A stretch of DNA of 63,350 nucleotides, filler included. It is 3 parts of 3 records of this genome, joined end to end, with 100 filler letters (N's around TTAATTAATTAA, not from the genome) between each part and the next. Parts side by side here need not be neighbours in the genome. Positions count along the whole stretch, not along the records: positions 29,585 to 51,568 come from DRR723986_1783; 2 more parts are not named here. One strand, given 5' to 3'. The stretch's first letter is position 1. Each line of letters starts with the position of its first letter. This document shows positions 29,584 through 51,568 of this stretch, one piece after another. Below the pieces are notes generated by a model that searched no databases, was not told where the DNA came from, and saw only the letters and a list, made by a program, of their open reading frames with translations. The translations under genes and the position numbers were made by a program.

Positions 29584-29585
29584 NG

Positions 29586-32500
29586 ATGGGCAGCTATTTC
29601 TATTTCAACATCTGTTCCAACCCGGATCTGGTGGATGACGTGGGCATGTTCCTGCTGCGCCATACCGGCAATGACAAGGATTTCCTGTCGACCCGTGTCA
29701 GCCATGTGTTTGACCTGAAGGGGCCGTCGATCAACATGCAGACCGCCTGTTCGACCTCCCTTGTGGCGATCCATTATGCCTGTCAGGCACTGCGGGCGGG
29801 CGAAATTGACATGGCGCTGGCGGGCGGTGTGACCATCGAACTGCCGCATGGGCGCGGCTATGAGTTCAAGGAAAATGAAATCCTGTCACCGGACGGGCAT
29901 TGCCATGCTTTTGATCACCGGGCGCAGGGCACCGTGTTTGGTTCTGGTGCAGGGGCCGTGGCCTTGCGCCGCCTCTCGGACGCGATTGCCGATGGCGATC
30001 ACATTTGGGGTGTGATCAAGGGATCTGCGGTCAACAACGATGGCGCGGCCAAGGCTGGGTACTTGGCCCCATCTGTGGATGGACAAACCGACGCCATCGT
30101 CAAGGCGCTCGATGATGCAGGCGTTGCGGCGCAAAGCATTGGCATGGTCGAATGTCACGGCACCGGCACCTATCTGGGCGATCCGATAGAGGTTGCCGCG
30201 CTGACCGAGGCTTACCGCAAGACCACCACCGATACGGATTTTTGCCGCATTGGATCGGTCAAGACCAACATTGGCCATCTGGATACGGCGGCGGGGGTTG
30301 CGGGTTTTGTGAAATCTACACTTGCCCTGCACCACAAACAGATGCCGCCATCGCTCGGCTATGAGGCGCCCAATCCCGCCATCCCGTTTGAGGGCAGCCC
30401 GTTTTCAGTGAACGACACATTGCGCGACTGGCCCCAAGGCATCGCGCCGCGCCGTGCGGCGATAAATGCGCTGGGCGTGGGCGGCACCAATGCCCATGCG
30501 ATCATCGAAGAAGCCCCCGCACGCCCCGCGTCCGAAGAAAGCGATTGGCCGTTCCACGTGCTGTGTGTTTCCGGGCGCAGCAAATCCGCGCTGGATGCGA
30601 ACACCGCCGCGCTGGCCGCACATATGCGGGCGCATCCCGAACAACCCTTGGCCGATGTGGCCTTTACCCTCAAAAACGGGCGGCGTGGCTTTGAAAAGCG
30701 GCGCGTTGTGGTGGCCGAAACCCATGAGGAGGCCGCGGCCTTGCTTGAGGGCGGCGACACCCGCCGTGTGTTCACTCATGATCTGCTGGGTGATGCGCCC
30801 GAGGTTGTGTTCATGTTCCCCGGCGGCGGGGCGCAGTACCCCGGCATGGCGCGGGATCTTTACGAGACAGAGCCGGTCTTTGCCGATTGGATGGACCGCG
30901 GCCTTGCCCATCTTCAGCCGCAGCTTGATTACGACATCCGGGCGCTTTGGTTGCCCGAAGCGGATCAGATGGACGCAGCCGCAGAACGGCTCAAGCAACC
31001 CTCCGTACAACTGCCGCTGATTGCAATCACCGAATATGCGCTGGCACAGCTTTGGATCAGCTGGGGCGTGGCACCTGCGGCAATGGTGGGTCATTCGATG
31101 GGCGAAAACGTCGCCGCCTGTCTTGCCGGTGTGATGAGCTTTGAAAACCTGATTGATCTGGTGCTTTTGCGGGGGCGGCTGTTTGATGAGGTGCCAGCAG
31201 GCGGGATGATCAGCATCTCCGCACCGCTCAGCGCGATTGAACCGCTCTTGGGGGACGATCTGGACATCGCTTCGGTCAATGCGCCGGAGCTGATCGCCGT
31301 GTCAGGCCCGCAATCGGCGCTGGACGCGATGCAGGTCCGTCTGGCCGACGCTGGGCTGGAATACCAGCGGATCGCCATCGACATCGCAGCGCACAGCCGC
31401 ATGTTGGAGCCTATTCTGGATCGCTATCGCTCATTCCTTGCCGGGCTTGATCTGCAAGCGCCGCAGATGCCGTTTATGTCCAACCGCACAGGTCAGGAGA
31501 TCACGGCGGATGAGGCGACCAACCCCGATTATTGGGTTGGGCAGCTGCGCGACACGGTGAACTTTGCCGATTGCATTGCCACGCTGAGCGCCCCGCGCGA
31601 TCGCGTCTACCTTGAAGTCGGACCGGGCAAAGCCCTGTCTGCGCTGGCGCAGATGAGCGAGGGGGTCAAACCTGCGCAGGCGTTCTCCACCCTGCGCCAT
31701 CCCGATCAGGATATCGCGGATGATATGTACTTTATGTCCGTTATCGGGCGGCTTTGGGCTTGCGGCGTTGAGGCCGATTGGGCGCAGATCTGGGGCGAGG
31801 CGCGGCGCAACCGTGTGGTCTTGCCGACCTATGCTTTCCAGCGCAGCCGATATTTTATCGAGCCGGGCTCTGCGGCCGTTGCCGCGCCCGCCAGCGCCTT
31901 GGTGCGGCAGGATGATATGGCCACCTGGGGCGCTGTGCCCACATGGCGGCCCCGCTTTGCCAATGCCGATATTGACGCGATCACCGATCTGGCCGCGACA
32001 CCGCAGTCGTGGCTGATCTTTGGCGATGGTGATGGGCTGGCCGCGCCGGTGATGACGCGCCTGCGCGATGCCGGTCATCGGGTCATTGCCGTGCGGGCAG
32101 GGGATGCCTTTGCCCGTCAGGATGAGAACACCTATACGCTCGCGGCAGAGCAGGGCCGCAGGGACTATGACCTGTTGATTGCCGATCTTGCGGAACGCGG
32201 GCTGATGCCGGACCGGATCGCGCATTTCTGGCTGACCGATGATCACGTCGCGCCGCGCCCCGGCAGCAGCACCTTTGACCGCAACCTTGAACAAGGCTTC
32301 TGGAGCCTGACTTGGCTTGCCCAATCCCTGACCGAAGCGGGCCACGATGCGCCGCTGCATCTGAGTGTCTTTACCACAGGTGCGGCGCAGCTGAAGGATG
32401 AGGCGCTGGCCCATCCTGAAAAGGCGCTGATTGCCGGTCCTGTCGGTGTGTTCCCGCGTGAAATGCCGGGTGTGACCTGTGCCCAGATCGATATCGAAGA

Positions 32501-35500
32501 ACAAGCGGCGCCCGCGCCGGCAAAGCGGGGTTGGTTTGCGCCAGCCGCCCCATCCGAACCCGATATTGCGGATGATCTGACGGATCGCCTGCTGGAAGAC
32601 CTGATGGCCGTGCCTGCCAATCTGGTGGCCGCTTATCGCGGTACAAAACGGTTTGAACAAGGTTTCAAACCCGCGCCATTGAACGCCACCGATGATGTCC
32701 TCTTTGAGGAGGGTGGTGTCTATCTGATCACCGGCGGGTTTGGCGGTATTGGCCAGACACTGGCCGCAGATATCTTGTCGCGGCAGTCTGCGACGGTGGT
32801 TTTGCTGGGCCGCGACCCCTTGCCGGATCGTCAGGCGTGGAATGGCTATCTTGCCCGTCACGGCACGGCAGACCGCACCGCACGGCGGATGCGCAGTGTG
32901 ATCGAACTTGAGACAGCCGCAGCCGCCAAAGGTGGCCGGGTCGAGGTTGCCGGGGCCGACGTGGCCAATCTGGCGCAGATGCGCCGGGTGATTGAAGATC
33001 TGCAAAAACGCCATGGCCGGATCAATGGCGTTATCCATGCCGCCGGTGCGCTCGACGATGGGCCAATGCTGGGCAAAACGGACGCGCAGATGGATGCGGT
33101 TCTGTCGCCCAAGGTGCAGGGCTTGCGGGTCATTGATCAGTTGTTGCCTGATGGCGATCTCGATTGCCTGATCCTGTTTTCCTCCACCAGCACGGCGACC
33201 CGGTCTGCGGGGCAGGTGGATTATGTCGCAGCGAACGCCTGGCTCAATGCCTATGCCGCCGCCCGCAGTGGCGATATGACCCGCGTGATGGCGATCAACT
33301 GGGGCATCTGGGCCGATGTCGGCATGGCCACCAAAAGCCTGAGCGGCGGCGCCAGTGATGTGCTGCCCGCCCGCCCGATCAATGCGGCGCTGTTGCAGAC
33401 CATGGGTTCCGACGTGGCGGGTGATCCGGTTTTGTCCGCGCAGATCAGCAGCGCACATTGGCTGCTGGATCAACACCGCACCAAGGATGGTCAGGCGATC
33501 ATGCCCGGCACCGGCTACATTGAGCTGTTGGCCGAAGCCGCCACAGCCAAGGGGCTGACCCAAGGCTTTGAAATTCGGGATCTCTATTTCCTGCGGGCGA
33601 TGCCGGTCGAGGATGAAACGCCGCGCGACTTGCAGATCAACCTAAGCGGAGAAGGGGCGGGCTTTGCCGCTGAACTGCGCAGTGATTGCACATTGAACGG
33701 CAAATCCGGCTGGCAGCTTCACGCGCAGGCGCAGATCGCGCCGATCAGCGACCCGCAGCCAGAAACCTTCGATCTTGAGGCGGCATTTGGCCGCTGTGCG
33801 CAGATCAATACGGCGCCTGAGGGCGGGCGTTTGATTTCACCGCAAGAGGCGCATCTGGACTTTGGGCCGCGTTGGCATGTGCTGCGCGAAACCGCGGTTG
33901 GCGCGGATGAGGGTATCGCCAAACTGGCCTTGCCAGATGCCTGCCGTGATGATCTGCCTGAGGGTCACCTGTTGCACGCCGGTTTGTTGGACCTTGCCAC
34001 CGGCTGGGCGATTGATCTGGTGCCAAGCTATGATGCCAGCCACCTTTGGGTGCCGGTGTCCTATGGTGCGATCACCGTGTACGGGCCGCTTCCCGCAGAG
34101 ATTTATTCTCATGTTGCCCTGTCGAAAACGGCGGCGGGTGATGGCTTTGCCAGCTTTGATGTAACGATTTGTGATGCGGATGGCCGGATTTTGGTCAAGG
34201 TCGGGAATTTCGCGATGAAGCGGCTTGAGGGCGGCTTTGCCGCTGCGCCGCTGGACCCGCGCGAGGTGCGTTTTGATGATGTTGAGGCGGGTCAAGAGAG
34301 CCTGACACCGGCAGAGGAACGCCTTGCCTATATGGTTTCGCAGGGCATTCGCGCCGCTGAGGGACCAGAGGCATTGCGCCGTGCGATTGCGCTGGGCCGG
34401 TCGCAGGTGATTGTATCCTCACTGCCGCTAAATGGGCTGATCGCGCAGGCCGATCAGCCGCCGCAAGGGGCCAGCACCAGCGGGCAAAGCTTTGAACGCC
34501 CCGATCTCGACGGTTCTTTTGTTGCGCCGCGCAATGGCATCGAAGAACGGCTTGCTGCGATCTGGGAAAACTTGCTGGGCGTCAGCCCGGTTGGGGTTGA
34601 GGACAGCTTTTTTGATTTGGGCGGGCATTCGTTGATTGCTGTGCGCCTGTTTGCCAGTGTCAAACGCGAGTTTGCGGTCGAGTTTCCGATTTCGGTTCTG
34701 TTCGAGGCCCCGACCATTGCCAAATGTGCAGCACTGATTGCGGCACAGACCGGTGATGCGGGCGATGTTTCCGGCGCGGCGGATACCGGCGCTGCACCGG
34801 TGGCCGAAACCTTTGACTATCTCGTGCCACTGAACCAATGCGACCATAAAGACGCCGCGCCGCTGTTTGTGGTGGCGGGGATGTTTGGCAATGTGTTGAA
34901 CCTGCGCCATCTGGCCTTGCCGTTCAGCAAGGAACGCCGGGTGATGGGCATTCAGGCCCGTGGATTGATTGGCGACACGCCGCCCCATACCGACGTGGGC
35001 GAGGCGGCCCGAGACTATCTGGCTGAGGTGCGCCGCGTGCAGCCGCATGGGCCGTATCTGTTGGCGGGATATTCCGGTGGCGGGATCACCGCTTATGAAA
35101 TGGCGCAACAATTGCGCAGCGCGGGCGAGGAAGTTGCCGTTTTGGCGATGCTTGATACGCCATTGCCGGTGCGGCCATCGCTGTCGCGGCCCGATAAGGC
35201 GCTGATCAAATTGGCAGAGCTGCGCCGCAAAGGTCCGCGATACCTTGTGGAATGGGCGAAAAACCGACTGGCATGGGAAAAGACCCGCCGCGCGGGTGCG
35301 CAGGCAGATGCGGGCGATGGCAACGGGTCCGAGTTCAACAACCTCAAGATCCAGCAGGCCTTCCTGACCGCTGTCGGGGCCTATGACACACCCAAATGGG
35401 ATGGCCCGATGACCCTGTTCCGGCCACCGCTCGACTTGCATTGGCGGGTGACCAAGGGCCGGTTCGTCAGCGCGGAACGCGAATATGTGTTCGAGGACAA

Positions 35501-35678
35501 CGATTGGCGCGGCTATGTGCCAAACCTTGAGGTGATCGAAGTGCCCGGCGATCACGAATCCATGGTGCTTGCGCCCTTTGTGACCGTGTTGGCGCAAGAG
35601 CTGCGGGAAGTGATCAGCGGCGCCCTTGAGCCCGATCCAGAAGACAGCAACTGGCCCCGTGCCACGGCGGCGGAGTGA
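29586..35678 (+). CDS. type I polyketide synthase, 5' truncated (KS-AT-KR with inserted DH-ACP-TE)
   Basis: KS: TACSTS, HGTGT, NIGHL. AT: GHSMG. KR: TGGFGGIG, LDD, YVAAN. DH: HRTKDGQAIMP, HAGLLD. Carrier: GGHSL. TE: GYSGG. Confidence 0.95.
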   Translation: MGSYFYFNICSNPDLVDDVGMFLLRHTGNDKDFLSTRVSHVFDLKGPSINMQTACSTSLVAIHYACQALRAGEIDMALAGGVTIELPHGRGYEFKENEILSPDGHCHAFDHRAQGTVFGSGAGAVALRRLSDAIADGDHIWGVIKGSAVNNDGAAKAGYLAPSVDGQTDAIVKALDDAGVAAQSIGMVECHGTGTYLGDPIEVAALTEAYRKTTTDTDFCRIGSVKTNIGHLDTAAGVAGFVKSTLALHHKQMPPSLGYEAPNPAIPFEGSPFSVNDTLRDWPQGIAPRRAAINALGVGGTNAHAIIEEAPARPASEESDWPFHVLCVSGRSKSALDANTAALAAHMRAHPEQPLADVAFTLKNGRRGFEKRRVVVAETHEEAAALLEGGDTRRVFTHDLLGDAPEVVFMFPGGGAQYPGMARDLYETEPVFADWMDRGLAHLQPQLDYDIRALWLPEADQMDAAAERLKQPSVQLPLIAITEYALAQLWISWGVAPAAMVGHSMGENVAACLAGVMSFENLIDLVLLRGRLFDEVPAGGMISISAPLSAIEPLLGDDLDIASVNAPELIAVSGPQSALDAMQVRLADAGLEYQRIAIDIAAHSRMLEPILDRYRSFLAGLDLQAPQMPFMSNRTGQEITADEATNPDYWVGQLRDTVNFADCIATLSAPRDRVYLEVGPGKALSALAQMSEGVKPAQAFSTLRHPDQDIADDMYFMSVIGRLWACGVEADWAQIWGEARRNRVVLPTYAFQRSRYFIEPGSAAVAAPASALVRQDDMATWGAVPTWRPRFANADIDAITDLAATPQSWLIFGDGDGLAAPVMTRLRDAGHRVIAVRAGDAFARQDENTYTLAAEQGRRDYDLLIADLAERGLMPDRIAHFWLTDDHVAPRPGSSTFDRNLEQGFWSLTWLAQSLTEAGHDAPLHLSVFTTGAAQLKDEALAHPEKALIAGPVGVFPREMPGVTCAQIDIEEQAAPAPAKRGWFAPAAPSEPDIADDLTDRLLEDLMAVPANLVAAYRGTKRFEQGFKPAPLNATDDVLFEEGGVYLITGGFGGIGQTLAADILSRQSATVVLLGRDPLPDRQAWNGYLARHGTADRTARRMRSVIELETAAAAKGGRVEVAGADVANLAQMRRVIEDLQKRHGRINGVIHAAGALDDGPMLGKTDAQMDAVLSPKVQGLRVIDQLLPDGDLDCLILFSSTSTATRSAGQVDYVAANAWLNAYAAARSGDMTRVMAINWGIWADVGMATKSLSGGASDVLPARPINAALLQTMGSDVAGDPVLSAQISSAHWLLDQHRTKDGQAIMPGTGYIELLAEAATAKGLTQGFEIRDLYFLRAMPVEDETPRDLQINLSGEGAGFAAELRSDCTLNGKSGWQLHAQAQIAPISDPQPETFDLEAAFGRCAQINTAPEGGRLISPQEAHLDFGPRWHVLRETAVGADEGIAKLALPDACRDDLPEGHLLHAGLLDLATGWAIDLVPSYDASHLWVPVSYGAITVYGPLPAEIYSHVALSKTAAGDGFASFDVTICDADGRILVKVGNFAMKRLEGGFAAAPLDPREVRFDDVEAGQESLTPAEERLAYMVSQGIRAAEGPEALRRAIALGRSQVIVSSLPLNGLIAQADQPPQGASTSGQSFERPDLDGSFVAPRNGIEERLAAIWENLLGVSPVGVEDSFFDLGGHSLIAVRLFASVKREFAVEFPISVLFEAPTIAKCAALIAAQTGDAGDVSGAADTGAAPVAETFDYLVPLNQCDHKDAAPLFVVAGMFGNVLNLRHLALPFSKERRVMGIQARGLIGDTPPHTDVGEAARDYLAEVRRVQPHGPYLLAGYSGGGITAYEMAQQLRSAGEEVAVLAMLDTPLPVRPSLSRPDKALIKLAELRRKGPRYLVEWAKNRLAWEKTRRAGAQADAGDGNGSEFNNLKIQQAFLTAVGAYDTPKWDGPMTLFRPPLDLHWRVTKGRFVSAEREYVFEDNDWRGYVPNLEVIEVPGDHESMVLAPFVTVLAQELREVISGALEPDPEDSNWPRATAAE

Positions 35679-35683
35679 GAGAT

Positions 35684-36682
35684 ATGGCAGCAGCAAAAGT
35701 TCTGGTTCTGATCCTCAATTATCGCACGGCCGAGATGACCCTGCGGGCGGCAGAGGCGGCCTTGGCCGATATGCCGGCCCGGGCCGAGATGATCCTGATC
35801 GACAATGCCTCTGGCGACGGATCGGCGGGGGTGTTGCAACGTGCCATCACCGAACGGGGCTGGGATGAGAACGGTCTTGTGCGGTTGATCTTGTCGGATG
35901 TGAACGGCGGTTTTGGCGCGGGCAACAACCTTGGCCTCAAATCGCGCATGTCCGATGGCAGTGCGCCGGATTACTTCTATGTGCTGAACTCCGATGCCTT
36001 TCCCGATGCGGGGTGCCTGCCGCGTCTGATCACCCATCTGGAAAGCCACCCAAAGGCCGGTTTTGCAGGCAGCCATGTGCGCGGCGAGGATGACGTGACC
36101 CATTGTACCGCCTTCCGGTTCCCCTCCATTGCGGGTGAATTCGAAGGGGCGGCCCGCACGGGTGTTTTCTCGCGGATGCTCAAGAACGCCATCGTGGCCC
36201 CGCCAGTGCCGGATCACTCCGCCCGTGTCGATTGGGTGGCGGGGGCCAGCGTGCTGATCCGGGCCAAGATGCTTGAGGAAATCGGAGTGTTTGACGAAAC
36301 CTTCTTTCTCTATTTTGAGGAAACCGATCTGTGCAAACGCGCCGCCCGCGCCGGGTGGAGCTGTTGGTATCTGCCACAAAGCCGGGTTGTGCATATCGGG
36401 TCGGTGTCAACCGGCATGAAGGAATGGCAACGCATGCCGTCTTACTGGTTCGACAGCCGCCGCCATTACTTTGTCAAAAACCACGGTTCTGCCTATGCCG
36501 CCGCCGCCCTTGTGGCGCGGTTGGCAGGTGGGGCCATTCATCACCTGCGCTGTGCCATTTCGGGGAAAAACAGCCAGGATCCTGCCCATTTTCTGCGTGA
36601 TCTGGCGCGGCATGGCTTTGGCCTGTCGCTTGACCGGCAACCCGCAACATCCCGACGCCCCGCAACGGAGGACAGACCATGA
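35684..36682 (+). CDS. GT2-family glycosyltransferase
   Basis: ILNY, IDNASGD, NGGFGAGNN, LNSD and FFLYFEETD motifs. Alternative GTG start at 35675. Confidence 0.92.
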   Translation: MAAAKVLVLILNYRTAEMTLRAAEAALADMPARAEMILIDNASGDGSAGVLQRAITERGWDENGLVRLILSDVNGGFGAGNNLGLKSRMSDGSAPDYFYVLNSDAFPDAGCLPRLITHLESHPKAGFAGSHVRGEDDVTHCTAFRFPSIAGEFEGAARTGVFSRMLKNAIVAPPVPDHSARVDWVAGASVLIRAKMLEEIGVFDETFFLYFEETDLCKRAARAGWSCWYLPQSRVVHIGSVSTGMKEWQRMPSYWFDSRRHYFVKNHGSAYAAAALVARLAGGAIHHLRCAISGKNSQDPAHFLRDLARHGFGLSLDRQPATSRRPATEDRP

Positions 36683-41262: not shown

Positions 41263-41945
41263 TCGAGGCCTGCGCCGATGACGATGCTGTATTGATCCAA
41301 GCGGCAGCTGCGGCCCTGTTTGACGGGGCCGTTGCTGTGGCAATTGCAGATCCGCATCAGGCGCAGCCCCCGATCTGGCCGGAAGAGGCGCAATTTGTGG
41401 CGCAGGCGGTTTCCAAAAGACGGGCCGAGTTTGCCGCCGGTCGCAGCGCGGCGCGGGCGGCCATGCGCATGTTGGGCGGGCCGGACATCGCCATTCCGGC
41501 AAGCGCGGACCGCGCACCAAGCTGGCCCGCAGGCTGGCATGGCAGCATCACCCACAACGATCGGTGGTGTCTGGCGGCGGTCACGCGCGGGGCGGCGCAT
41601 TTGGGTGTGGATATTGAGGTGGCAACGCCGTTGAACCCCGATTTACTGTCCACAATTTGCAGTCCTGCCGAAGTGGCGCGGATTGCAGGCGCCGATCAGG
41701 GCATGCTGGCCAAGGTGGTCTTTTCCGCCAAGGAAGCCGCCTACAAGGCGCAGTATCCTTTGACAGAGACCCTGTTTGGATTTGATCATCTTGACGTTGT
41801 TTTGGCACCTTATGACGGCCAGTTTCAAGCACGGTTTGTGCAACCTGCCGGTCGATTTGCGGCTGGCGATGTGCTGCGGGGCCGCTTTGCCATGGTGCGG
41901 GGGCAGATTGTTACGGCGGTCACCATTGACCCGATGAAAGAGTAA
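41259..41945 (+). CDS. 4'-phosphopantetheinyl transferase (EntD/Sfp type)
   Basis: KRRAEFAAGR, WPAGWHGSITH, GVDIE and FSAKEAAYKA motifs. Confidence 0.92.
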   Translation: MIEACADDDAVLIQAAAAALFDGAVAVAIADPHQAQPPIWPEEAQFVAQAVSKRRAEFAAGRSAARAAMRMLGGPDIAIPASADRAPSWPAGWHGSITHNDRWCLAAVTRGAAHLGVDIEVATPLNPDLLSTICSPAEVARIAGADQGMLAKVVFSAKEAAYKAQYPLTETLFGFDHLDVVLAPYDGQFQARFVQPAGRFAAGDVLRGRFAMVRGQIVTAVTIDPMKE

Positions 41946-41956
41946 AGAGGCGTTTC

Positions 41957-42904
41957 GTGATGGCCAGTATGAGCCGACGTTTGACCCTGACCGGGCTTGC
42001 ACTTGTTGCGGCAGGCGGGGCGTTCTGGATGATGCGGCGGCAGTCGGGCAAAGCCGAGGCCGAGGCGCTTTATGCCGCGCCCTTGCCCGCCCCGAAGGGG
42101 GCGCTGCGGGTCTATCATCTGGGTCATTCGCTGGTGGGGCGCGACATGCCCGCGATGCTGGCGCAACTGGCGGGTGCGGGGCATCACTATGACAGCCAGC
42201 TGGGCTGGGGCACATCGCTTAAGGAACATTGGGAGCCGGATCTGCCGATCAATGGCTTTGATCAGGAAAATGACCATGCGCGTTTCCGCCCCGCGGCCGA
42301 AGCGGTCACGTCAGGCACCTATGATGCGGTGGTGTTGACCGAGATGGTCGAGCTGCGCGATGCGATCAAATACCACGACAGCGCCCGTTACTTGGGGCGT
42401 TGGGCCAAACAAGTGCATGAGGCCAATCCGGCGGCGCGGATCTATCTTTATGAGACATGGCATCACATCAACGACCCCGCAGGCTGGGAAAACCGCATTC
42501 GGGACGATCTCGATGCGCTTTGGCGCGAAAAGGTGCTGTATCCGGCGCTGGCCCAAAGCGGCGCGCCGATCCATCTGATCCCGGCGGGGCAGGTCATGGC
42601 GGCCTTTGTGCGTGCAGTAGAAAAGCGCGGCGGTGTGGAAGGCATCAACGGGGTGGATGATCTGTTTGCGATTTCCGATGACGGCAGCCGCGACACGATC
42701 CATATCAATGATCTGGGTGCCTATCTGGTGGCGCTGACCCATTATGCGGTGCTGTATCATCGCGATCCGACAGGGCTGCCGCATCAGTTGCAGCGGGCTG
42801 ATGGCAGCACTGCCGAGGCGCCAAGCGGCGAGGCGGCGGCGCTGATGCAGCAGGTTGTCTGGGATGTGGTGCGATCCATGCCCGATAGCGGAGTGGCGGG
42901 ATGA
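41957..42904 (+). CDS. exported or membrane-anchored SGNH-like protein
   Basis: N-terminal SRR plus hydrophobic stretch; GHSL nucleophile-like motif; DTIH (DxxH) near the C-terminus. Family call is inference. Confidence 0.7.
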   Translation: MMASMSRRLTLTGLALVAAGGAFWMMRRQSGKAEAEALYAAPLPAPKGALRVYHLGHSLVGRDMPAMLAQLAGAGHHYDSQLGWGTSLKEHWEPDLPINGFDQENDHARFRPAAEAVTSGTYDAVVLTEMVELRDAIKYHDSARYLGRWAKQVHEANPAARIYLYETWHHINDPAGWENRIRDDLDALWREKVLYPALAQSGAPIHLIPAGQVMAAFVRAVEKRGGVEGINGVDDLFAISDDGSRDTIHINDLGAYLVALTHYAVLYHRDPTGLPHQLQRADGSTAEAPSGEAAALMQQVVWDVVRSMPDSGVAG

Positions 42905-45414: not shown

Positions 45415-46244
45415 CCGGCACCTCAATCTTGATCCCTGCCCATAACGAGGCGGGCTATTTGCCAGCCTGTTTGCAGGCGGTGCTGGCTTCTAATCCGGTC
45501 GAAGGCCCGGTCGAGGTGATCGTGATCGCCAATGGCTGCACGGACAACACCGCCGCAATTGCGCGGGGGTTCGAGGAACAGACCCTGCTCAAGGGTTGGC
45601 GGCTCAAGGTGTTGGACCTGACCGAGGGCGGCAAGCTGAATGCGTGGAACGCCGGAGAGGCCGCCGCGGAAGGGGATGTGCTGATCTATCTGGACGCGGA
45701 TGTGAATATCTCACCGCCGCTGGTGGGGCAGATTGCCAAGGCGCTTGCTGCTGAGGCGCCCCGCTATGCCAGCGGGCGGCCCAATGTGACGGTGCAGGAT
45801 GATACGCTGACGCGGCATTACACGCGGTTCTGGCTGACCACGCCGTTTATGACCCACGGCGTGCCCGGCTTTGGGGTGTTTGCGATGAACCGTGCCGGGC
45901 GCAGTCGTTGGGGCCATTGGCCCGATATCATTTCAGACGACACCTTTGCCCGCCTCAATTTCCGCCCCGAAGAAAGGCTTTCGGTGCGCGCAGAATATGA
46001 TTGGCCAATGATCGAAGGGTTCGCGCGTCTGGTTCAGGTGCGTCGGCGTCAGGACATTGGCGTGGCCGAGATCGAGGAACGCTATCCCGAGCTGTCGGTC
46101 AATGACGACCCCAAAGACAATGCCCTACCGGTCTGGAAACGGGCCCTGCGCGATCCGGTGGCCTTTGCCGCATTTGCCGCGGTGCGGATTGCCATCAAAC
46201 TGCCGATCCTGCGATCGTCAAACCGCTGGGTGCGGGGCCGCTAA
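45411..46244 (+). CDS. GT2-family glycosyltransferase
   Basis: ILIPAHNE, NGCTDNT, YLDAD; ATGA overlap with the upstream stop. Confidence 0.88.
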   Translation: MTGTSILIPAHNEAGYLPACLQAVLASNPVEGPVEVIVIANGCTDNTAAIARGFEEQTLLKGWRLKVLDLTEGGKLNAWNAGEAAAEGDVLIYLDADVNISPPLVGQIAKALAAEAPRYASGRPNVTVQDDTLTRHYTRFWLTTPFMTHGVPGFGVFAMNRAGRSRWGHWPDIISDDTFARLNFRPEERLSVRAEYDWPMIEGFARLVQVRRRQDIGVAEIEERYPELSVNDDPKDNALPVWKRALRDPVAFAAFAAVRIAIKLPILRSSNRWVRGR

Positions 46245-46247
46245 AGC

Positions 46248-47462
46248 CTAAATGATGTGTGAGGCCAGTTTCGCCGCTTCAATCGCCACGTCATGCCGTG
46301 CCAAGGCGCGCACGCGGCCCGCTTCGCCCATTTTGGTCAGTTTTTGCGGGGTTGCCTTGGCCAGATCATCCAGCGCTCCGGCCAATGCATCTGCATCTCC
46401 CGCTGGCACCATCCAGCCGGTTTTGCCATCCTGCACCAGCTCCGGCGTGCCAGCGATATAGGTCGCGATCACCGGGCGGGCGGCGGCCATCGCCTCCATA
46501 ATCACCATCGGCAGTCCTTCGGCAAAGCTGGGCATGACAAAGCCATGGGCGGCGGCCAGTTCGGAGCGTACTCGCGCCTCATCCACCCAGCCGGGCAAGG
46601 ACACGCGCGATTGCAGACCATGCTGTGCGATCCGTGCCTCAATCATACCGCGCATTTCGCCATCGCCCAGAAGGGTAAGGTGCAAATCAGGGTCTTCCGT
46701 TTTGGCCAGCGCGTCGATCAACAATAACTGGCCTTTTTGTTCGACAAACCGCCCGATGGAGACCACCCGCCGTGGCCCTTTGGGCAGGGGGGCGGGATCA
46801 CCAAAACGGGCCGGCTCAATCCCGCAATGCACCACTTTGATGCGGTCCCAATCTTCGGCGGCGGCCCAGCGGCACAGCTGGCTGCGGCCAAAGTTGCTGA
46901 TCGCGACGGTAAAGGCGGCGTGACGCATCTTGGTGCCGAGGGACAATGCGCGGGGGGCGTCAAATTCTTCGGGGCCATGCACGGTGAAGGAATACTCCGG
47001 CCCGCCAAGCAGATGCGCCAGCATCGCCACAGCGGCGGCATTGGTGCCAAAATGGGCGTGCATATGGGTGATGCCTTCGGCCTTGCACCGCTCCAGCACA
47101 TAACAGGCTTCGGCCAAATAGATCAGATGGCGGCTGCGGCTGCTTTCTGAAGCGGCCCCCAGATCCAGTGCCACTTTGGCGGCGGAAAAAAACGCGGCGG
47201 CATCCGACCTCAAAACCCGAAACAGCGCACGGCCCAATTGCCCGGCCCCCTGGGCCAGCACATGTTCGGTCTTGGCGTTTTCGGCCTGATCAAGCGGATC
47301 AACCAACGCAGCAGCGGACGGGCGCATGGCAATGCGGAAGATGTCGTGGCCCTGCGCCTCAAGCGCGTGGATCTCGCGGCGGATAAAGCTGTGCGAGGGC
47401 TGCGGATAGGTGTTGAGGATATAGGCGATCTTCAAGTGGGCTGTCCTTTGGGTTTGTGCCAT
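46248..47462 (-). CDS. GT4-family glycosyltransferase
   Basis: HAHFGTN, GRFVEQKG and PSFAEGLPMVIMEAMA (EX7E) motifs; start placed at MAQTQR. Confidence 0.92.
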   Translation of the reverse strand: MAQTQRTAHLKIAYILNTYPQPSHSFIRREIHALEAQGHDIFRIAMRPSAAALVDPLDQAENAKTEHVLAQGAGQLGRALFRVLRSDAAAFFSAAKVALDLGAASESSRSRHLIYLAEACYVLERCKAEGITHMHAHFGTNAAAVAMLAHLLGGPEYSFTVHGPEEFDAPRALSLGTKMRHAAFTVAISNFGRSQLCRWAAAEDWDRIKVVHCGIEPARFGDPAPLPKGPRRVVSIGRFVEQKGQLLLIDALAKTEDPDLHLTLLGDGEMRGMIEARIAQHGLQSRVSLPGWVDEARVRSELAAAHGFVMPSFAEGLPMVIMEAMAAARPVIATYIAGTPELVQDGKTGWMVPAGDADALAGALDDLAKATPQKLTKMGEAGRVRALARHDVAIEAAKLASHII

Positions 47463-47544
47463 CCTAACGTCAAATCTTGGCGCTGGTACACGGGTCTTGC
47501 AGGGCTTAGTCTGCGCAAACGGCAGAAGTGAGGCAATTTTTCGG

Positions 47545-48900
47545 GTGTTTGCGCGTATTTGGGAAAAACTGGGGGACAACCGGCTGATGGCGCGGGTGTT
47601 CCGCTCTGCATCGTTGATCATTCTTGGCTATGGCGCGTCGCAGGGATTGCGGCTGCTGTCGAACCTGATCCTGACGCGGCTGTTGTTTCCCGAGGCGTTT
47701 GGCCTGATGGCGCTGATTTCGGTGGTGACGGTGGGGCTAACCCTGTTTTCCGATGTCGGCATCGCGCCTTCCATTGCGCAAAGTAAACGTGGCGACGATC
47801 CGGCTTTTCTGAACACCGCATGGAGCATTCAGGTGGTGCGGGGCGGGTTGCTGTGGGTCGCGGCCTGTCTTTTGGCGTATCCGCTGTCGGTGTTTTACGA
47901 CCAGCCAGCTTTGGCCAGCTATCTGCCGCTGGCGGCGCTTTCGCTGCTGGTGAGCGGGTTCAACCCGACACGGATCGAAACGGCGCACCGGCATTTGCTG
48001 ATGGGGCGGCTGACGGGTCTGGATCTTCTGTCGCAGGTGATCGGGTTGATCAGCATGATTGCGCTGGCGTTGATCCTGCAATCGGTGCTGGCACTGGTGA
48101 TTGGCGGGGTGATCGGGGCGGCGGCAAAACTGGCGCTGACCCATTTCTATCTGCCCGGAGATCGCAACCGGTTTCAGTGGGAAGGGGCGGCGGCCAAGGA
48201 ATTGATCACCTTTGGCAAATGGATTTTCCTGTCCACGGTGTTTTGGTTCTTTGCCAGTCAGGGGGACAAGGCGGTGCTGGGCAAGTTCCTGACCCTTGAG
48301 ACCCTGGGCATTTACAACATTGGTTATTTCCTTGCCAGTTTCCCGCTGTTGCTGGGCCATAACGTGACCGCAAGGGTGATGATCCCGGTCTACCGCGAGC
48401 AGACGGAACCGGCACGAATTGCCCGGCTGCGTTATGGCCTGTCGGTGGGGGTGATCGGGCTTTTGGTGGTGATGGCGCTGTCCGGGCCATGGCTGGTGGA
48501 TCTGCTGTATGATGCCCGATACGCGCTGTCGGGGGCGATCATTGTTTTGCTGACGGTGGCACTGATCCCGCAGGTGATTGGCATGACCTATGATCAAGCG
48601 GCCCTGGCGGCGGGGGATTCGCGGCGGTTCTTTGTCTATTCTGCCATCCGGTCGAGCTTGCAGGTGGGCATGCTGTTTATCGGTGCTCTTTATGCCGGAT
48701 TGATCGGTGCAATTATCGGTATGGGGCTGGCGATGGTGCTGTCACATGGGGTGCTGATCTGGTTGGCGCGGGCGCATGGGGTTTGGGACGCGCGGCATGA
48801 TGCACTTTTTGCTGTGGTTGGTCTGGCCACGGCTGTGGCGGCCTGCTGGATGCATTGGGGGGCAATTGCCGCGCTTTGGGTCGCGTCTGGTCAGCCCTGA
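47545..48900 (+). CDS. Wzx-like oligosaccharide flippase
   Basis: ILTRLLFPEAFGL motif, many TM helices, LGIYNIGY. Start may be 47545 or 47587. Confidence 0.88.
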   Translation: MFARIWEKLGDNRLMARVFRSASLIILGYGASQGLRLLSNLILTRLLFPEAFGLMALISVVTVGLTLFSDVGIAPSIAQSKRGDDPAFLNTAWSIQVVRGGLLWVAACLLAYPLSVFYDQPALASYLPLAALSLLVSGFNPTRIETAHRHLLMGRLTGLDLLSQVIGLISMIALALILQSVLALVIGGVIGAAAKLALTHFYLPGDRNRFQWEGAAAKELITFGKWIFLSTVFWFFASQGDKAVLGKFLTLETLGIYNIGYFLASFPLLLGHNVTARVMIPVYREQTEPARIARLRYGLSVGVIGLLVVMALSGPWLVDLLYDARYALSGAIIVLLTVALIPQVIGMTYDQAALAAGDSRRFFVYSAIRSSLQVGMLFIGALYAGLIGAIIGMGLAMVLSHGVLIWLARAHGVWDARHDALFAVVGLATAVAACWMHWGAIAALWVASGQP

Positions 48901-50192
48901 CGCAATTTGCGGGCTTGCCGCGCGGCGCGGCCGCGCTGTCCGGCTTCGCGGCGGCTTTGCCATCTGCCTTTCAAACCACCACGCCCATTCGTATCGACCA
49001 TCGGGATAGAGACCACGGGCCGCAAACCGGTTTCCCGCTCCATCTGGCGGGCCGAGCGCACCACAGGGTTCAACAGTTCCAGCAGGAAGGCGATGCCAAC
49101 CGCAACCATGACAGAGGCCACGGCACCGACCATCGCAAGGGTCTTGCGACTGCGGGTGATGGCGGCCTCGGGCACCTGTGCCTCTTCGAGTGTGATCATG
49201 CGTTCGCTGCGCGCGCCGGCCTCTAGCGAAAAGCCGACCTCGGCCTCGCTGCGGCGGGTGCTGACGACATCCAACTGGCCTTGGATCTGGGAAATCCGGC
49301 GGGTGTATTGCGCCAGTTCAAGCTCCACCTCGGGGGAGGTTTCCAGGCTTTTGCTCAGCGCTGTACGCCGTTGATCCAACAGCCGCCGCTGTGTGGTCAG
49401 GCTGCTGAGTTGCGCCTCGATCTCGCGTTCCTGACGGGCGACGGTTTCGGCGCGGGCGGTGCGATCAATGCGGGTGCGGGCCAGCTGGGTCGAGATGATC
49501 TCTCGGTCCAGTTCCAACAGGGATGCATTGAGACTGCCAATTTCATCGCGGCGGAACTCAAGACTGCCTTCGATGGACAGATCGTTTTTCTTGCGAAAAG
49601 CAGTCAGCTCGGCCTCAAGGGCGGCCAGCTCAACAATCAATTTGTCTTCTTGTTGCTCAAAGAAATCCAGCGTTTCACGGGTGCTTTCTTCGCGCTGTTC
49701 CGCGGCCAAAAGACGGGTGCGATCGGCGATTTCATGGGCGACAGCCTGTGCATTTTCGGGGCTGTCCATATTGGCGGTGATGGTGATGACCGAAATGGCG
49801 CCGTCATCGGCGAACCCTTCGCGCACCGCGGCCATTCCGGTGATCGAAATGGCGTCGCGCAGGCGGCTCACCTTTTCGATCTGCATTAGACCGGGCATAT
49901 TTTCATAGAGGCCAAATTTGTCGATAATCTCAAGCAGGCTGTTGCGGGCCATGACCTGTTGTTCGATCAACTGCAAGCGCCGCGCGGATGAGCCATCAAC
50001 CGTCGAAGGCGCCAGATCGTCTTTTACGATGGGTTGTTCGATCTGGATGACTTCGGAGGAGCTGTAGACATGCTGCTGCGAGAGGGCAAAGAACACCGAT
50101 GCCACGCAGCCAAGCAGAAACACAAACAGGATCAGCCCCGCGCGACGGCGGAGCATGTCCAAAAAATCAGCCAGAGTATAGATCGGACCCAT
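48891..50192 (-). CDS. polysaccharide co-polymerase / chain-length determinant (Wzz/GumC-like)
   Basis: Two terminal TM segments flanking a long coiled-coil region. Confidence 0.8.
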   Translation of the reverse strand: MGPIYTLADFLDMLRRRAGLILFVFLLGCVASVFFALSQQHVYSSSEVIQIEQPIVKDDLAPSTVDGSSARRLQLIEQQVMARNSLLEIIDKFGLYENMPGLMQIEKVSRLRDAISITGMAAVREGFADDGAISVITITANMDSPENAQAVAHEIADRTRLLAAEQREESTRETLDFFEQQEDKLIVELAALEAELTAFRKKNDLSIEGSLEFRRDEIGSLNASLLELDREIISTQLARTRIDRTARAETVARQEREIEAQLSSLTTQRRLLDQRRTALSKSLETSPEVELELAQYTRRISQIQGQLDVVSTRRSEAEVGFSLEAGARSERMITLEEAQVPEAAITRSRKTLAMVGAVASVMVAVGIAFLLELLNPVVRSARQMERETGLRPVVSIPMVDTNGRGGLKGRWQSRREAGQRGRAARQARKLRQG

Positions 50193-50323: not shown

Positions 50324-51292
50324 TCAGCGGAACCGGCGAATGCTTGATTTGCGGGCGCGGTTCAGCACGACACCCAACAATGGCACTTGGCCGTCCAGCA
50401 TCCGTTCGCATTCCAGCAAATCGCGGCTGATTGTCTGGGTGCCATCAGACACCACCAGAACAGCGTCAAGCTGCGGCAGGAAGGCCGACACATCGTCATA
50501 GGCCAACATGGGCGGCAGGTCGTAGATCACCAGATCAGGGTTCAGATCCTGCTGCATCCGCGCCAGTGTGGCGTGGGTCTTGGGATCTTGCATCACCTCA
50601 GCGGCCTTGCGTGAAGGCGATTGGTTGAGGCCAAGCGCCAAAGTGTCGGACACCCGCAGCAGATGATCCTGATCGGCAACCGTGCCGGACAGGTAGTCTT
50701 CCATCATGCCGCCGGACGGCAGATCAAAGGCCTGCGCCACGCCGGGATCACGCAGGTTGAAATCCATCAGAACACAGCGCGAGCCTGCAACGCGTGACAG
50801 GCTTTGTGCAAGGTTGGTTGCGGTGAAAGTGCTGCCACATCCGGCGGTGGGGCCGGTGATGCCAATGTTGACCCAACCGTTTTCCAGCGTGGTCTGACGC
50901 AGCCGGGTGCGCAGCAGATCAAAGGCGCGGGCAGATGCATCGTCACGCTCGGCGGGCAGGGTGCTTGGCGCGGGGGCCATGGCATTGCCCAGCCCTTCGG
51001 TGATCATTGGAATGTCATTCCACCCCAAGGCAGGCGGCTCAACAGCTTCTTCGAGGATCATTGGCGCTGGCGCTTCGGCCTGCGCTTCGGGCAGGTCAAA
51101 CTCAAGATTTGGCGCGGCAAGGGATTGATCCAGCAAACGGCGCTTGGCCTGTTCGGCCAGACCGCGGCGCGGACGCAGGCTGTGCCCCATATCAACCGGG
51201 GCATCGATCAAAGCATCGTCCATGTCAAAATCGGACATGTCTTCTGAAAAATAGCTATCTTTCATTGTCTTGCCTTTGGGTTTCTTGGCCAT
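50324..51292 (-). CDS. CpsD/CapB-like tyrosine kinase homolog with degenerate Walker A
   Basis: AFDLLRTRL, ITGPTAGCGSTF, YDLPP and LLGVVLN motifs. Confidence 0.82.
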   Translation of the reverse strand: MAKKPKGKTMKDSYFSEDMSDFDMDDALIDAPVDMGHSLRPRRGLAEQAKRRLLDQSLAAPNLEFDLPEAQAEAPAPMILEEAVEPPALGWNDIPMITEGLGNAMAPAPSTLPAERDDASARAFDLLRTRLRQTTLENGWVNIGITGPTAGCGSTFTATNLAQSLSRVAGSRCVLMDFNLRDPGVAQAFDLPSGGMMEDYLSGTVADQDHLLRVSDTLALGLNQSPSRKAAEVMQDPKTHATLARMQQDLNPDLVIYDLPPMLAYDDVSAFLPQLDAVLVVSDGTQTISRDLLECERMLDGQVPLLGVVLNRARKSSIRRFR

Positions 51293-51333
51293 GTGCCACT
51301 TCGTTTTATAAGGTTGCCGGGATCGGGTTGTTT

Positions 51334-51568
51334 CTAACAGCCCGTCCGGCGCAATACTACGCCAACCGTTTTGAATAGGATTTTCAGGTCCAGCATCAGC
51401 GTCAGGTCACGCTCGTAATTTGCATCAATGGTCTTGCGATGGCTAAAGCCGTTGTCGTTGCGCGACGAGATTTGCCACAGACCGGTGATTCCCGGACGCA
51501 GCGCCTCATAGGCGGAGGCATCACCGTACATAATCAACTGTTCCGGCAGCATTGGGCGCGGGCCAACA
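51334..51568 (-). CDS. priming sugar-phosphate transferase, C-terminal fragment
   Basis: VGPRP...RPGITGLWQIS...LDLKILFKT; truncated at the contig end. Confidence 0.88.

Follow-up and report, generated by a model that had tools for sequence, protein, structure and literature searches.

The closest described relative of the locus reported here is a conserved hybrid NRPS/PKS cluster of the Roseobacter group, reported in 2007 by Martens et al. (as cited in PMC4337385 and PMC4062626). The passages of PMC4337385 drawn on here present it as four genes of secondary metabolism with an uncharacterised product, found in 28 of 57 genomes. Like our contig, which comes from the same bacterial family, this cluster comprises a PKS, a glycosyltransferase, an NRPS and a PPTase, and an earlier note on this DNA had correctly pointed to such Roseobacter blocks. 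In the present sample the NRPS gene was found in 100 of 301 family genomes. Unlike the four-gene cluster of those passages, the core described here lies in a locus of about 15 genes, which beyond the core encodes WaaL/Wzy-fold, WecG, GT2, GT4, Wzx, Wzz, P-loop, priming transferase and SGNH/GH proteins.

Mono-modular type I PKSs within surface-polysaccharide loci are also represented by WcbR of Burkholderia and RkpA of Sinorhizobium, the precedents offered in the earlier note. These belong to ABC-transporter (Kps-type) capsule systems with no known NRPS partner, and this mode of export makes them poor analogues. The present locus is instead of the Wzx/Wzy type and includes SGNH/GH genes, a PPTase of its own and a loading module of the NRPS kind, and no Kps-type genes were seen in the contig or in the homologous locus of the complete chromosome G233. 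Assembly-line products that end on cell-surface sugars, as proposed here, are found with Pks13, whose thioesterase (TE) moves an acyl chain onto trehalose, and with mycobacterial glycopeptidolipid loci. Those products are long-chain lipids of actinobacteria exported by MmpL, whereas a short glycine-derived unit in a Gram-negative Wzx/Wzy setting is predicted here, and the likeness of the two TEs is generic: the TE of our PKS is of a generic NRPS/PKS type by sequence, with Pks13 TE domains among its matches at 8e-9.

The window, a stretch of 63,350 nucleotides, joins contigs of at least three organisms. Positions 29586-51568 are one whole draft contig (21,984 bases) between artificial spacers at 29485-29584 and 51569-51668 (N44-TTAATTAATTAA-N44), and thus the finding spans exactly one contig. 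Its source is a Sulfitobacter close to S. mediterraneus. S. mediterraneus DSM 12244 is collinear with it and 94.6% identical in an alignment of 21,684 bases that spans 29585-51259. Contig 1 of the window shares 99% identity with G001, which belongs to another family, and contig 3 gave no match to G001 or to the S. mediterraneus genome G133; the flanks of 29586-51568 are other organisms' DNA and not genomic neighbours. Both contig ends cut genes (the PKS 5' end and the priming transferase). The chances seem to us about even that the contig represents most of one ~26 kb locus building a single surface glycoconjugate. Pfam and NCBIfam place all genes named in the earlier note where it had put them:

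29586..35678, + strand, type I PKS (Pfam: KS-AT-KR-DH-carrier-TE)
35675..36682, + strand, GT2a, soluble family-2 glycosyltransferase (Pfam PF00535, 2.3e-13)
36679..41262, + strand, NRPS-like loading module (formyltransferase N and C, split adenylation domain, PCP)
41259..41945, + strand, PPTase, Sfp/EntD-type 4'-phosphopantetheinyl transferase (Pfam 4PPT_N 1.9e-24, ACPS 4.5e-11)
41957..42904, + strand, SGNH-like (DUF4886-like) protein (weak Pfam DUF4886 match)
42901..45414, + strand, SGNH/GH-like three-part protein, 837 residues (SGNH-like domain, beta-sandwich, (beta/alpha)8 barrel)
45387..46244, + strand, GT2b, second family-2 glycosyltransferase (Pfam PF00535, 7.2e-24)
46248..47621, - strand, GT4 glycosyltransferase, EpsE-like (Pfam Glycos_transf_1 2.2e-35)
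47497..48900, + strand, Wzx-type MOP flippase (Pfam Polysacc_synt_3 2.9e-44; many hydrophobic segments)
48891..50192, - strand, Wzz/PCP-type chain-length protein (Pfam Wzz 1.4e-4, under cut-off)
50324..51292, - strand, BY-kinase-like P-loop protein (NCBIfam tyrosine-autokinase families 6e-17 to 5e-9, all under cut-offs)
51334..51568, - strand, WbaP-type priming transferase (polyprenyl-phosphate sugar-phosphate), C-terminal 77 codons, cut by the contig end

The first seven genes form a translationally coupled run on the + strand, its junctions comprising overlaps of 4, 4, 4, 4 and 28 bases and one 11-base gap, in keeping with the overlapping or near-zero gaps noticed earlier. GT2a overlaps the PKS stop with its start and the NRPS start with its stop. 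Downstream lie the genes for GT4, Wzx, the Wzz-like protein and the kinase-like P-loop protein, followed by the priming transferase end. The earlier note had seen no pump, receptor or resistance gene, and none was found in the contig with Pfam or in the complete G233 locus.

Because the contig begins 390 bases inside the gene, some 130 residues are missing from the PKS N-terminus, and its KS profile match begins at position 145 of 252; the full-length gene in locus L001 encodes 2160 residues. The KS Cys/His/His, AT Ser, KR Tyr/Asn and DH His/Pro/Asp residues are invariant in 62/62 homologues, as are the carrier Ser and the TE Ser/His. Judged by these residues the protein is one condensation-competent KS-AT-KR-DH-carrier-TE module, the single PKS module that had been proposed. 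Its AT motif, DIAAHS, lies outside the textbook malonyl and methylmalonyl motifs. GT2a has no hydrophobic segment, and no solved relative was found by sequence. The PPTase is predicted to be able to activate two carrier domains.

In the NRPS-like protein, a glycine-type adenylation domain is interrupted after core motif A4 by a MupA/Atu3671-type FMN monooxygenase (luciferase-like) that matches PuwE 6ket at 2e-99. The gene scores 466 bits with TIGR04020 (cut-off 244) and 443 with TIGR01733 (cut-off 317), contains a Formyl_trans_C subdomain, and has LgrA as its best solved relative. The protein has no intact C domain, and residues 463-525 align to a C-domain end as a relic. The adenylation code DILQ(M/L)GMIWK, read here as glycine-like, and the formyltransferase Asn/His/Asp residues are both kept in 69/69 homologues, and the protein is best described from these features as a loading module whose formyltransferase is intact and which contains an FMN monooxygenase as an insert. 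The code and the formyltransferase residues support the loading chemistry of the earlier note; a simple N-formylglycine origin is improbable given the monooxygenase inside the adenylation domain.

The arrangement of an N-terminal formyltransferase ahead of adenylation domain and PCP is shared with CongA of conglobatin, OzmO of oxazolomycin and LgrA. As in oxazole-polyketide modules, the code is of the glycine type and the PCP feeds a PKS ketosynthase (mechanism in PMC4504003, whose passages used here give formylglycine as the PKS starter unit in conglobatin). Unlike CongA, OzmO and LgrA, the present protein has a full Fmt-like C-terminal subdomain, some 230 further residues with the C-domain-end relic, and the inserted monooxygenase; its genes lie in a glycan context with only one PKS module and without a cyclodehydratase gene. 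MtaG and MelG (myxothiazol and melithiazol) share with it an adenylation domain interrupted by a monooxygenase of the MupA/Atu3671 LLM family. MtaG is a terminal module, in which hydroxylation cleaves glycine and leaves an amide, whereas the module here is a starter that also bears a formyltransferase. In myxothiazol the monooxygenase domain is reported to alpha-hydroxylate glycine (as cited in PMC9396620).

The SGNH-like protein at 41957..42904 has a hydrophobic N-terminal signal or anchor, keeps its GHSL and DxxH blocks in 31-34 of 34 homologues, and is paralogous (35% identity) to the N-terminal domain of the 42901..45414 protein. The latter has no Pfam match. Foldseek searches with its AlphaFold model (pLDDT 80.3) matched the N-terminal part to DUF4886 structure 4i8i at 3e-6, PatB and CE3 esterases, and the C-terminal part to GH10, GH39, GH51 and GH26; the modelled (beta/alpha)8 barrel thus resembles clan GH-A glycoside hydrolases. 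G14 H15 S16 L17, D202, H205, E559 and E753 are invariant in 41 sequences.

The polysaccharide genes of the contig are assigned with varying scores. GT4 matches NCBIfam EPS_EpsE at 3e-70, under that family's cut-off, and Wzx translation probably begins beyond the first TTG. The Wzz-like protein, with a coiled periplasmic part and two membrane segments at its hydrophobic ends, matches the XrtA chain-length determinant family of NCBIfam at 1.9e-27, under cut-off. The P-loop protein has the motif P-T-x-G-C-G-x-T, without the Walker A lysine in 39/39 homologues, and no tyrosine-rich tail was seen in these (0-2 Tyr among the last 30 residues). The priming transferase fragment matches NCBIfam WbaP_sugtrans at 4.3e-24 (profile positions 378-454), and its full homologue in G233 has 257 residues (Bac_transf 2.3e-58). 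Complete related loci continue past the contig's end, upstream of the PKS, with WaaL/Wzy-fold, WecG-family and GT2 genes. These upstream genes were absent from the earlier note, as were the inserted monooxygenase, the GH-like half of the 837-residue protein and the contig ends. The outer-membrane exporter Wza is located away from the locus in G133 and G233, and none of the sugar acyltransferase types MBOAT, AT3 and GNAT was found in the Sulfitobacter locus.

Conservation was compared in 79 fetched loci, the best-scoring of 398 relatives and leaning towards Sulfitobacter, of which 63 were evaluable. By the earlier note's own test, its reading would be refuted by homologous PKS/NRPS blocks that usually lack polysaccharide genes; in these best-scoring relatives the opposite was found, with at least one of Wzx, Wzy-like and Wzz beside the core in 63/63 loci. 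Individual genes were present as follows: GT2a 63, PPTase 60, Wzy-like 56, Wzz 53, WecG 52, kinase-like 51, GT4 49, GT2b 46, both SGNH-like genes 44 and Wzx 40 (missed in 23). A PPTase gene with two SGNH-like genes after it is seen again in 41/63, in isolates and MAGs, and the arrangement is therefore not accidental. That chance adjacency or mis-assembly in a mixed sample joined the PKS/NRPS to polysaccharide genes, as a window concatenated from several organisms might suggest, is extremely improbable, being contradicted by this recurrence and by the DSM 12244 collinearity. Downstream genes are absent from L049, L053, L067, L078 and L079, in which the PKS is still immediately preceded by Wzy_C-like, WecG and GT2 genes, and from L063, which keeps WecG and GT2 in that place and where no Wzy-like gene was found. 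On the complete G233 chromosome the PKS/NRPS genes occupy the middle of a 15-gene stretch that has the priming transferase at one end and a GT2 at the other, with housekeeping genes flanking.

Among the 301 evenly drawn family genomes, 110 have the Wzy-like gene and 93 have both it and the NRPS. The former was found in 93/100 NRPS-positive genomes, with no match in 7, against 17/201 NRPS-negative ones, at weaker scores; the SGNH/GH protein (104/301) was found in 94/100, with no match in 6, against 10/201. These counts overstate independence, since the genomes are related. In 73/100 genomes no more than 30 kb separates the Wzy-like gene from the NRPS; in 8 genomes the two still co-occur at 47-420 kb, and in 12 they are on different contigs. 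A second bacterial family repeats the partnership in a different gene order: in 3/3 loci examined the PKS is divergent from NRPS-PPTase-SGNH-like and lies beside WecG, Wzx, GT2 and GT4, with Wzy_C, Wza and Wzz-AAA genes in addition in G070; GT2a was not found in these three loci.

Alternatively, the PKS, GT2a, NRPS and PPTase could make a small, glycosylated, diffusible compound beside a separate polysaccharide pathway, the two being inherited together for their shared use in life on surfaces. Only the four-gene core is present in every locus, the surrounding polysaccharide genes vary in content and order, thioesterases usually hydrolyse or cyclise their substrates, and the literature drawn on here treats the core as a secondary-metabolite cluster (PMC4337385; PMC10584327). 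A correlation between traits of surface colonisation and NRPS/PKS genes has also been reported (Slightom and Buchan 2009, cited in PMC5030684). We nevertheless consider a free metabolite rather unlikely. Exporter, receptor, regulator and self-resistance genes are absent from the complete G233 locus, two carbohydrate-active SGNH-like genes and a GT2 are in translational coupling with the core, and the association is re-created in another gene order in the second family. The near-confinement of the Wzy-like and SGNH/GH genes to NRPS-positive genomes would also be unexpected for an independent polysaccharide pathway.

The steps predicted from the sequence are loading of glycine, N-formylation, a single ketide extension and release by the thioesterase, with alpha-hydroxylation as a probable further step. 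In the proposed glycan pathway, glycyl-S-PCP would be N-formylated and, in analogy to MtaG and enzymes of the MupA type, also hydroxylated at C-alpha. The KS would accept this unit for one extension with a malonyl-type unit, and reduction and perhaps dehydration would yield a C4 formamido-hydroxy or enoyl acid; N-formyl-alpha-hydroxyglycine may fragment, which makes the predicted unit uncertain. We infer that the product is attached to the glycan. Purely by analogy with Pks13 and trehalose, the thioesterase might attach the acid to one of the sugars in the lipid-linked repeat, or it might free the acid for use by the coupled GT2. The priming transferase would build the repeat together with the GT2, GT4 and WecG-family transferases; Wzx would flip it in decorated form, and the WaaL/Wzy-fold protein would polymerise or ligate it. 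The Wzz-like and lysine-less P-loop proteins would control assembly, and the SGNH-like and GH-like proteins would trim or remodel the polymer outside the cytoplasm.

The TE-released product, glycosylated by GT2a, could instead be the acceptor or end-group onto which a WaaL-fold enzyme ligates the flipped glycan, that is, a polymer anchor or cap and not a side-chain on every repeat. GT2a is soluble, is translationally coupled between PKS and NRPS, and is present in all 63 evaluable loci, and the gene tied tightest to the PKS/NRPS is the WaaL/Wzy-fold gene directly upstream (56/63 loci, 93/100 genomes), whose modelled product has the ligase WaaL as its best solved match (Z 16.0 over 333 residues; next match Z 8.6). 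Ligases and polymerases are, however, inseparable by fold or Pfam family, and the second family did not yield a GT2a. A Wzx/Wzz pathway also requires a polymerase, and no further Wzy_C gene turned up in the Sulfitobacter-type locus. With one module and no enoyl reductase the product would be a C4 unit, which is too small to anchor a polymer in a membrane unless the PKS works iteratively, and we regard this anchor or cap as improbable.

In conclusion, the interpretation of the earlier note is, as a whole, partly supported. While the four-gene core was already known, its linkage to a polysaccharide locus of about 15 genes, the co-occurrence across genomes and the recurrence in a second family are what the present analysis adds. 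As the core is almost always inherited with surface-polysaccharide assembly genes, its product probably belongs to a cell-surface glycan instead of being a free antibiotic. That a two-protein assembly line and a Wzx/Wzy-type pathway are permanently linked here and together make one surface glycoconjugate is, in our judgement, about as likely as not.

All of the genes that the earlier note named on the contig at 29586-51568 were found there by Pfam and NCBIfam searches. Seven genes run together on the plus strand in the order PKS, GT2 glycosyltransferase (GT2a), NRPS-like gene, PPTase, two SGNH-like proteins of 315 and 837 residues (the larger called SGNH/GH below) and a second GT2 (GT2b). Four of their junctions overlap by 4 bases and one by 28, and at the remaining one 11 bases separate the genes. 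The first four make up the Roseobacter block of PKS, glycosyltransferase, NRPS and PPTase. The seven-gene run is followed by a GT4 gene (-), a Wzx flippase (+; PF13440, 2.9e-44), a Wzz-like gene (-) whose product scores under the Pfam and NCBIfam family cut-offs, a BY-kinase-related P-loop gene (-) and the final 77 codons of a priming transferase of the WbaP type (-). Genes are cut at both ends. The contig opens 390 bases into the PKS gene, with the KS profile match beginning at position 145 of 252; in L001, the locus of Sulfitobacter mediterraneus DSM 12244, this gene encodes 2160 residues. The priming transferase gene runs off the other end, leaving a 77-residue C-terminal fragment in the window, and its full homologue in G233, a complete chromosome with a homologous locus, is a 257-residue Bac_transf protein. 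The earlier note had seen no efflux pump, siderophore receptor or resistance gene, and gene-by-gene domain searches likewise found no pump, receptor or resistance gene on the contig or in the complete G233 locus; a siderophore or antibiotic cluster was rejected on this ground.

The region corresponds to exactly one 21,984-base contig, with artificial spacers (44 N, TTAATTAATTAA, 44 N) at 29485-29584 and 51569-51668. It is collinear with L001 over 21,684 aligned bases at 94.6% DNA identity, and protein identity to L001 is 92-98%. Contig 1 (1-29484) matches G001, a 6.7 Mb genome from another family, at 99% identity. Neither of the other two contigs matches G001, and contig 3 also has no match to G133, an S. 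mediterraneus genome. By these sequence comparisons the three contigs derive from at least three organisms, and the source assembly is therefore mixed or metagenomic. Because the contigs differ in origin, nothing beyond 29586-51568 can serve as locus context, and both flanks were set aside, contig 1 as another family's genome and contig 3 as that of a third organism. A flavin monooxygenase-like gene directly before the spacer (27729-29216, +) was rejected as a PKS tailoring enzyme, since it sits on the unrelated contig 1. The 3' end of that contig holds part of a bacterial RNase P RNA (29230-29484, -; Rfam 118.9 bits), and that the Rfam match runs on past the spacer into the PKS gene is a joining artefact. 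Contig 3 (51669-56904) begins within a malic-enzyme gene (-) and carries priA and argS, ordinary housekeeping genes of the third organism.

The association between the PKS/NRPS genes and polysaccharide genes was examined in the loci of relatives. The NRPS-like protein has 398 relatives in species-representative genomes, and the best 79 of their loci, each extended by 10 kb flanks, were retrieved; the named records among these 79 all belong to Rhodobacteraceae or Paracoccaceae genera. Sixty-three loci were evaluable, reaching 4.5 kb or more beyond the PKS on its upstream side and 9 kb or more downstream of the NRPS.

Table. Genes found by tblastn (at least 50% coverage) in the 63 evaluable loci
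GT2a: 63/63
PPTase: 60/63
Wzy-like (WaaL/Wzy-fold gene upstream of the PKS): 56/63
Wzz-like: 53/63
WecG/TagA-family transferase: 52/63
P-loop protein: 51/63
GT4: 49/63
GT2b: 46/63
Each SGNH-like gene: 44/63
Upstream GT2: 44/63
Wzx (tblastn): 40/63
At least one of Wzx, Wzy-like and Wzz: 63/63

In related loci the PKS is directly preceded on its upstream side by the Wzy-like, WecG and upstream GT2 genes; the contig break accounts for their absence from the window. The arrangement varies among loci. In L049, L053, L067, L078 and L079 housekeeping genes follow the PPTase and the Wzy-like, WecG and GT2 genes are still found upstream; L063, with housekeeping genes in the same place, keeps WecG and GT2, and the Wzy-like gene was not found there. 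The rearranged loci L034-L038, L042 and L066 carry Wzx, SGNH/GH and GT2b upstream and Wzz, the P-loop gene and GT4 downstream. The Wzy-like gene encodes a membrane protein of 470-509 residues with a weak Wzy_C match (7e-8 in L067, 0.0059 in L001). Its structural model (pLDDT 84.6) aligns to the O-antigen ligase WaaL with a Z score of 16.0 over 333 residues in a wider structural search, the next chain reaching 8.6, and in Foldseek to WaaL at E 7.5e-3 only; the modeled fold and the Pfam match would fit a ligase and a polymerase equally, so that the two classes are not separable by them.

Two of the fetched loci differ in other ways. In Neptunicoccus sediminis (L029:14212-23628) the genes after the NRPS encode a 2OG-Fe(II) oxygenase, two sulfotransferases, a GMC oxidoreductase, a GT2 and Wzx, this sulfotransferase-bearing set replacing the SGNH/GH genes, and the gene content hints at a sulfated variant of the product. 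In a Marivita MAG (L042:3596-5734 and 17213-17608) the PKS seems to be divided, its KS-AT part lying apart as a 713-residue piece, and an IS200-like transposase follows the NRPS gene; together these suggest that this copy of the locus may be decaying.

A broader view came from 301 genomes, an even draw from the family to which G133 belongs. With a stricter first look, at least 100 of the 301 had the NRPS-like gene; the Wzy-like gene was found in 110 and SGNH/GH in 104. The Wzy-like gene occurred in 93 of 100 NRPS-positive genomes versus 17 of 201 NRPS-negative ones, and SGNH/GH in 94/100 versus 10/201, figures that are descriptive and do not represent independent trials because the sampled genomes are related. 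Matches to either gene in NRPS-negative genomes mostly had weaker scores. The Wzy-like gene lay less than 30 kb from the NRPS gene in 73 genomes; in eight it shared the contig at a distance of 47-420 kb, and in 12 it was on another contig. It was not found in seven of the 100 NRPS-positive genomes. Together with the 63 of 63 evaluable loci, this sample strongly supports the association of the PKS/NRPS genes with polysaccharide genes proposed in the earlier note.

The complete G233 chromosome shows the locus in full, in the order priming transferase, P-loop, Wzz, GT4, GT2b, SGNH/GH, SGNH, PPTase, NRPS, GT2a, PKS, Wzy-like, WecG, GT2, GT2, flanked by glpX and homoserine dehydrogenase on one side and by FAD oxidoreductase and GGDEF genes on the other. 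Besides having no pump or receptor, this locus contains no Wza; Wza genes are found elsewhere in the genome. Wza lies outside the locus in both G133 and G233 and inside it in G070, a genome of a second family. Two GGDEF diguanylate cyclase genes (L088:14870-15907 and L089:58-1458) are within about 10 kb of the G233 locus, a placement that makes a c-di-GMP link to its regulation possible.

That second family is the one to which G001 belongs, where a full-length NRPS-like homologue at about 50% identity was found in five of 132 genomes, other matches being generic adenylation domains. Homologues of the PKS, NRPS, PPTase and SGNH-like genes occur there at 42-50% identity (L080-L085, from G070, G051 and G067), set within a complete Wzx/Wzy/Wza/Wzc-type locus. 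In the three of the five that were fetched, the PKS (45% identity) is divergent from the NRPS-PPTase-SGNH-like genes, and in 3/3 loci it is flanked by WecG-like, Wzx, GT2 (51%) and GT4 genes. The G070 locus also contains Wzy_C, Wza, a fused Wzz-AAA protein, a methyltransferase and further GT4 genes. GT2a was not found in the second-family loci. This distribution suggests that the whole system was horizontally transferred or is ancient.

Genome-mining papers assume that the assembly line makes a free metabolite. A partnership with polysaccharide genes that is kept across rearrangement and, in some genomes, physical separation and recurs in a second family, with no export or resistance genes alongside, argues that the product belongs to a glycan pathway; we consider a free metabolite improbable, and membership of the glycan pathway, either as a repeat-unit substituent or as an aglycone or end-group, probable. 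A substituent on the repeat unit has about an even chance of being correct, and an aglycone or end-group attached by the protein with the WaaL fold is rather unlikely. The interpretation in the earlier note is supported in part, transfer to a glycan being its putative step. The polysaccharide pathway itself is atypical in that its P-loop protein has no Walker lysine and its exporter is outside the locus. Capsule systems of the WcbR/RkpA type, which the earlier note had cited as known cases of a PKS in a capsule locus, have a KpsMT-type ABC exporter and KpsCS genes in the locus. Kps-type genes are absent from the contig and from the complete G233 locus, so the analogy is a poor one and a Kps/ABC capsule system was rejected.

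In the assembly line, the PKS has the domain order KS-AT-KR-DH-carrier-TE, without an enoyl reductase. The KS Cys/His/His, AT serine, KR motifs and TE Ser/His are invariant in 62/62 homologues, as are the motifs TACSTS, HGTGT, NIGHL, GHSMG and LGGHSL, the complement of a cis-AT module. The DH motif, a His-x4-Gly-x4-Pro variant with its Asp, is also invariant in the 62, and the carrier motif LGGHSL is PCP-like. The AT motif is DIAAHS in 62/62 homologues, which is neither the textbook malonyl nor the methylmalonyl motif (the extender-unit motifs being HAFH and YASH). Compared with solved structures, the TE matches only generic NRPS/PKS thioesterases, which is uninformative on the acceptor.

The best solved relative of the NRPS-like protein is LgrA, the formylating initiation module of linear gramicidin synthetase, and its formyltransferase domain aligns to the LgrA F domain. 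This domain (Formyl_trans_N PF00551, 1.2e-19; Formyl_trans_C PF02911, 3.3e-4, at the Pfam threshold) is N-terminal to the A-PCP portion, and its Asn96, His98 and Asp134, together with the PCP serine, are invariant in 69/69 homologues. Residues 463-525 align solely to the end of a condensation domain. The adenylation domain is in two AMP-binding halves (534-747 and 1125-1331) around a luciferase-like monooxygenase at 764-1114, with the PCP after them; the A4 core FDIS precedes the insert and the A5 core NMYGPTE follows it, placing the insert between A4 and A5 as in the MtaG type. TIGR04020 assigns the inserted monooxygenase to the MupA/Atu3671 family (466 bits, cut-off 244). Read by hand, the ten specificity positions give the adenylation code DILQ(M/L)GMIWK in 69/69 sequences, which would be the glycine Stachelhaus code or one residue off it. 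The N-formyl glycine loading chemistry put forward in the earlier note is plausible from the formyltransferase residues and this code, as a prediction by sequence.

On this basis a glycine starter would be N-formylated and probably hydroxylated at C-alpha. The starter would then be extended by one ketide, reduced and perhaps dehydrated, and the thioesterase would free or transfer the extended unit. The predicted chemistry draws on published precedents, a formylglycine starter unit in conglobatin (PMC4504003) and a glycine alpha-hydroxylating monooxygenase domain in myxothiazol (as cited in PMC9396620). Beyond domain identification, all of these chemical steps are what we infer.

The two SGNH-like proteins share an N-terminal domain with G-H-S-L and D-x-x-H blocks. 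G-H-S-L and D202/H205 are invariant in 41 sequences of the 837-residue protein and conserved in the 315-residue paralogue. The AlphaFold model of the 837-residue protein, built from these 41 sequences, has a pLDDT of 80.3. Its N-terminal domain matches DUF4886/SGNH structures (4i8i), the peptidoglycan O-acetyltransferase PatB and CE3 esterases in Foldseek, and the C-terminal two-thirds of the model align with (beta/alpha)8 glycoside hydrolases of GH10, GH39, GH51 and GH26 (E 1e-5 to 2e-3), with E559 (SNEVWNW) and E753 (YEGG) invariant in the 41 sequences. The fold, block I serine and block V Asp-x-x-His place them in the SGNH hydrolase/acyltransferase superfamily, and the 315-residue protein has a hydrophobic segment at its N-terminus. 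From the shared blocks, the fold matches and this segment, both proteins look like extracytoplasmic carbohydrate esterases, acyltransferases or glycanases. RTX calcium-binding repeats in one SGNH/GH homologue (L034:1-2382) hint at type I secretion in a family without an obvious signal peptide. No recognizable sugar acyltransferase is present in the locus, and the GT2a sequence has no match among solved structures.

The P-loop protein (50324-51292, -) carries the motif P-T-x-G-C-G-x-T, with a cysteine and no Walker lysine, in 39/39 homologues, and has no C-terminal tyrosine cluster. Since the Walker lysine and the Tyr tail are both absent, a canonical tyrosine kinase was rejected, and the protein may be a pseudokinase or a nucleotide-binding adaptor.

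The four-gene block itself is already known and is reportedly first described in 2007, by Martens et al. According to later papers, the cluster is conserved in 28/57 roseobacter genomes with an uncharacterised product (PMC4337385), is confirmed in Phaeobacter inhibens genomes (PMC4062626) and was still an unknown NRPS-like/T1PKS hybrid in 2023 (PMC10584327). Among the mostly open-access papers searched, in their main text, none named the product or tied the cluster to genes for polysaccharides. What appears to be new is the extended, glycan-coupled locus, together with its co-inheritance with the block.

We hold it possible, though on balance doubtful, that this marine group and at least one other family make a Wzx/Wzy-type surface polysaccharide in which the NRPS-PKS unit is an obligatory covalent component. 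The unit would be an N-formyl, possibly alpha-hydroxylated glycine plus one ketide, handed to the sugar by the PKS thioesterase or via the coupled GT2. If so, Wzy-dependent polymers would carry a class of modification that has not been described for them, and the orphan Roseobacter cluster would have an identified product. The comparative data make the question of the product's role directly testable by experiment.

Roseobacters are among the most abundant marine surface colonisers and algal partners, and no other "secondary metabolite" cluster is as widespread in them as the PKS/NRPS block, which about a third of the genomes carry. If the block belongs to a polysaccharide pathway, genome-mining surveys that score it as antibiotic potential misread it, and its product should be sought in capsule, EPS and LPS fractions instead of culture extracts. 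The known decorations of Wzy-dependent glycans would then include assembly-line chemistry, with a bearing on attachment, phage recognition and algal interaction.
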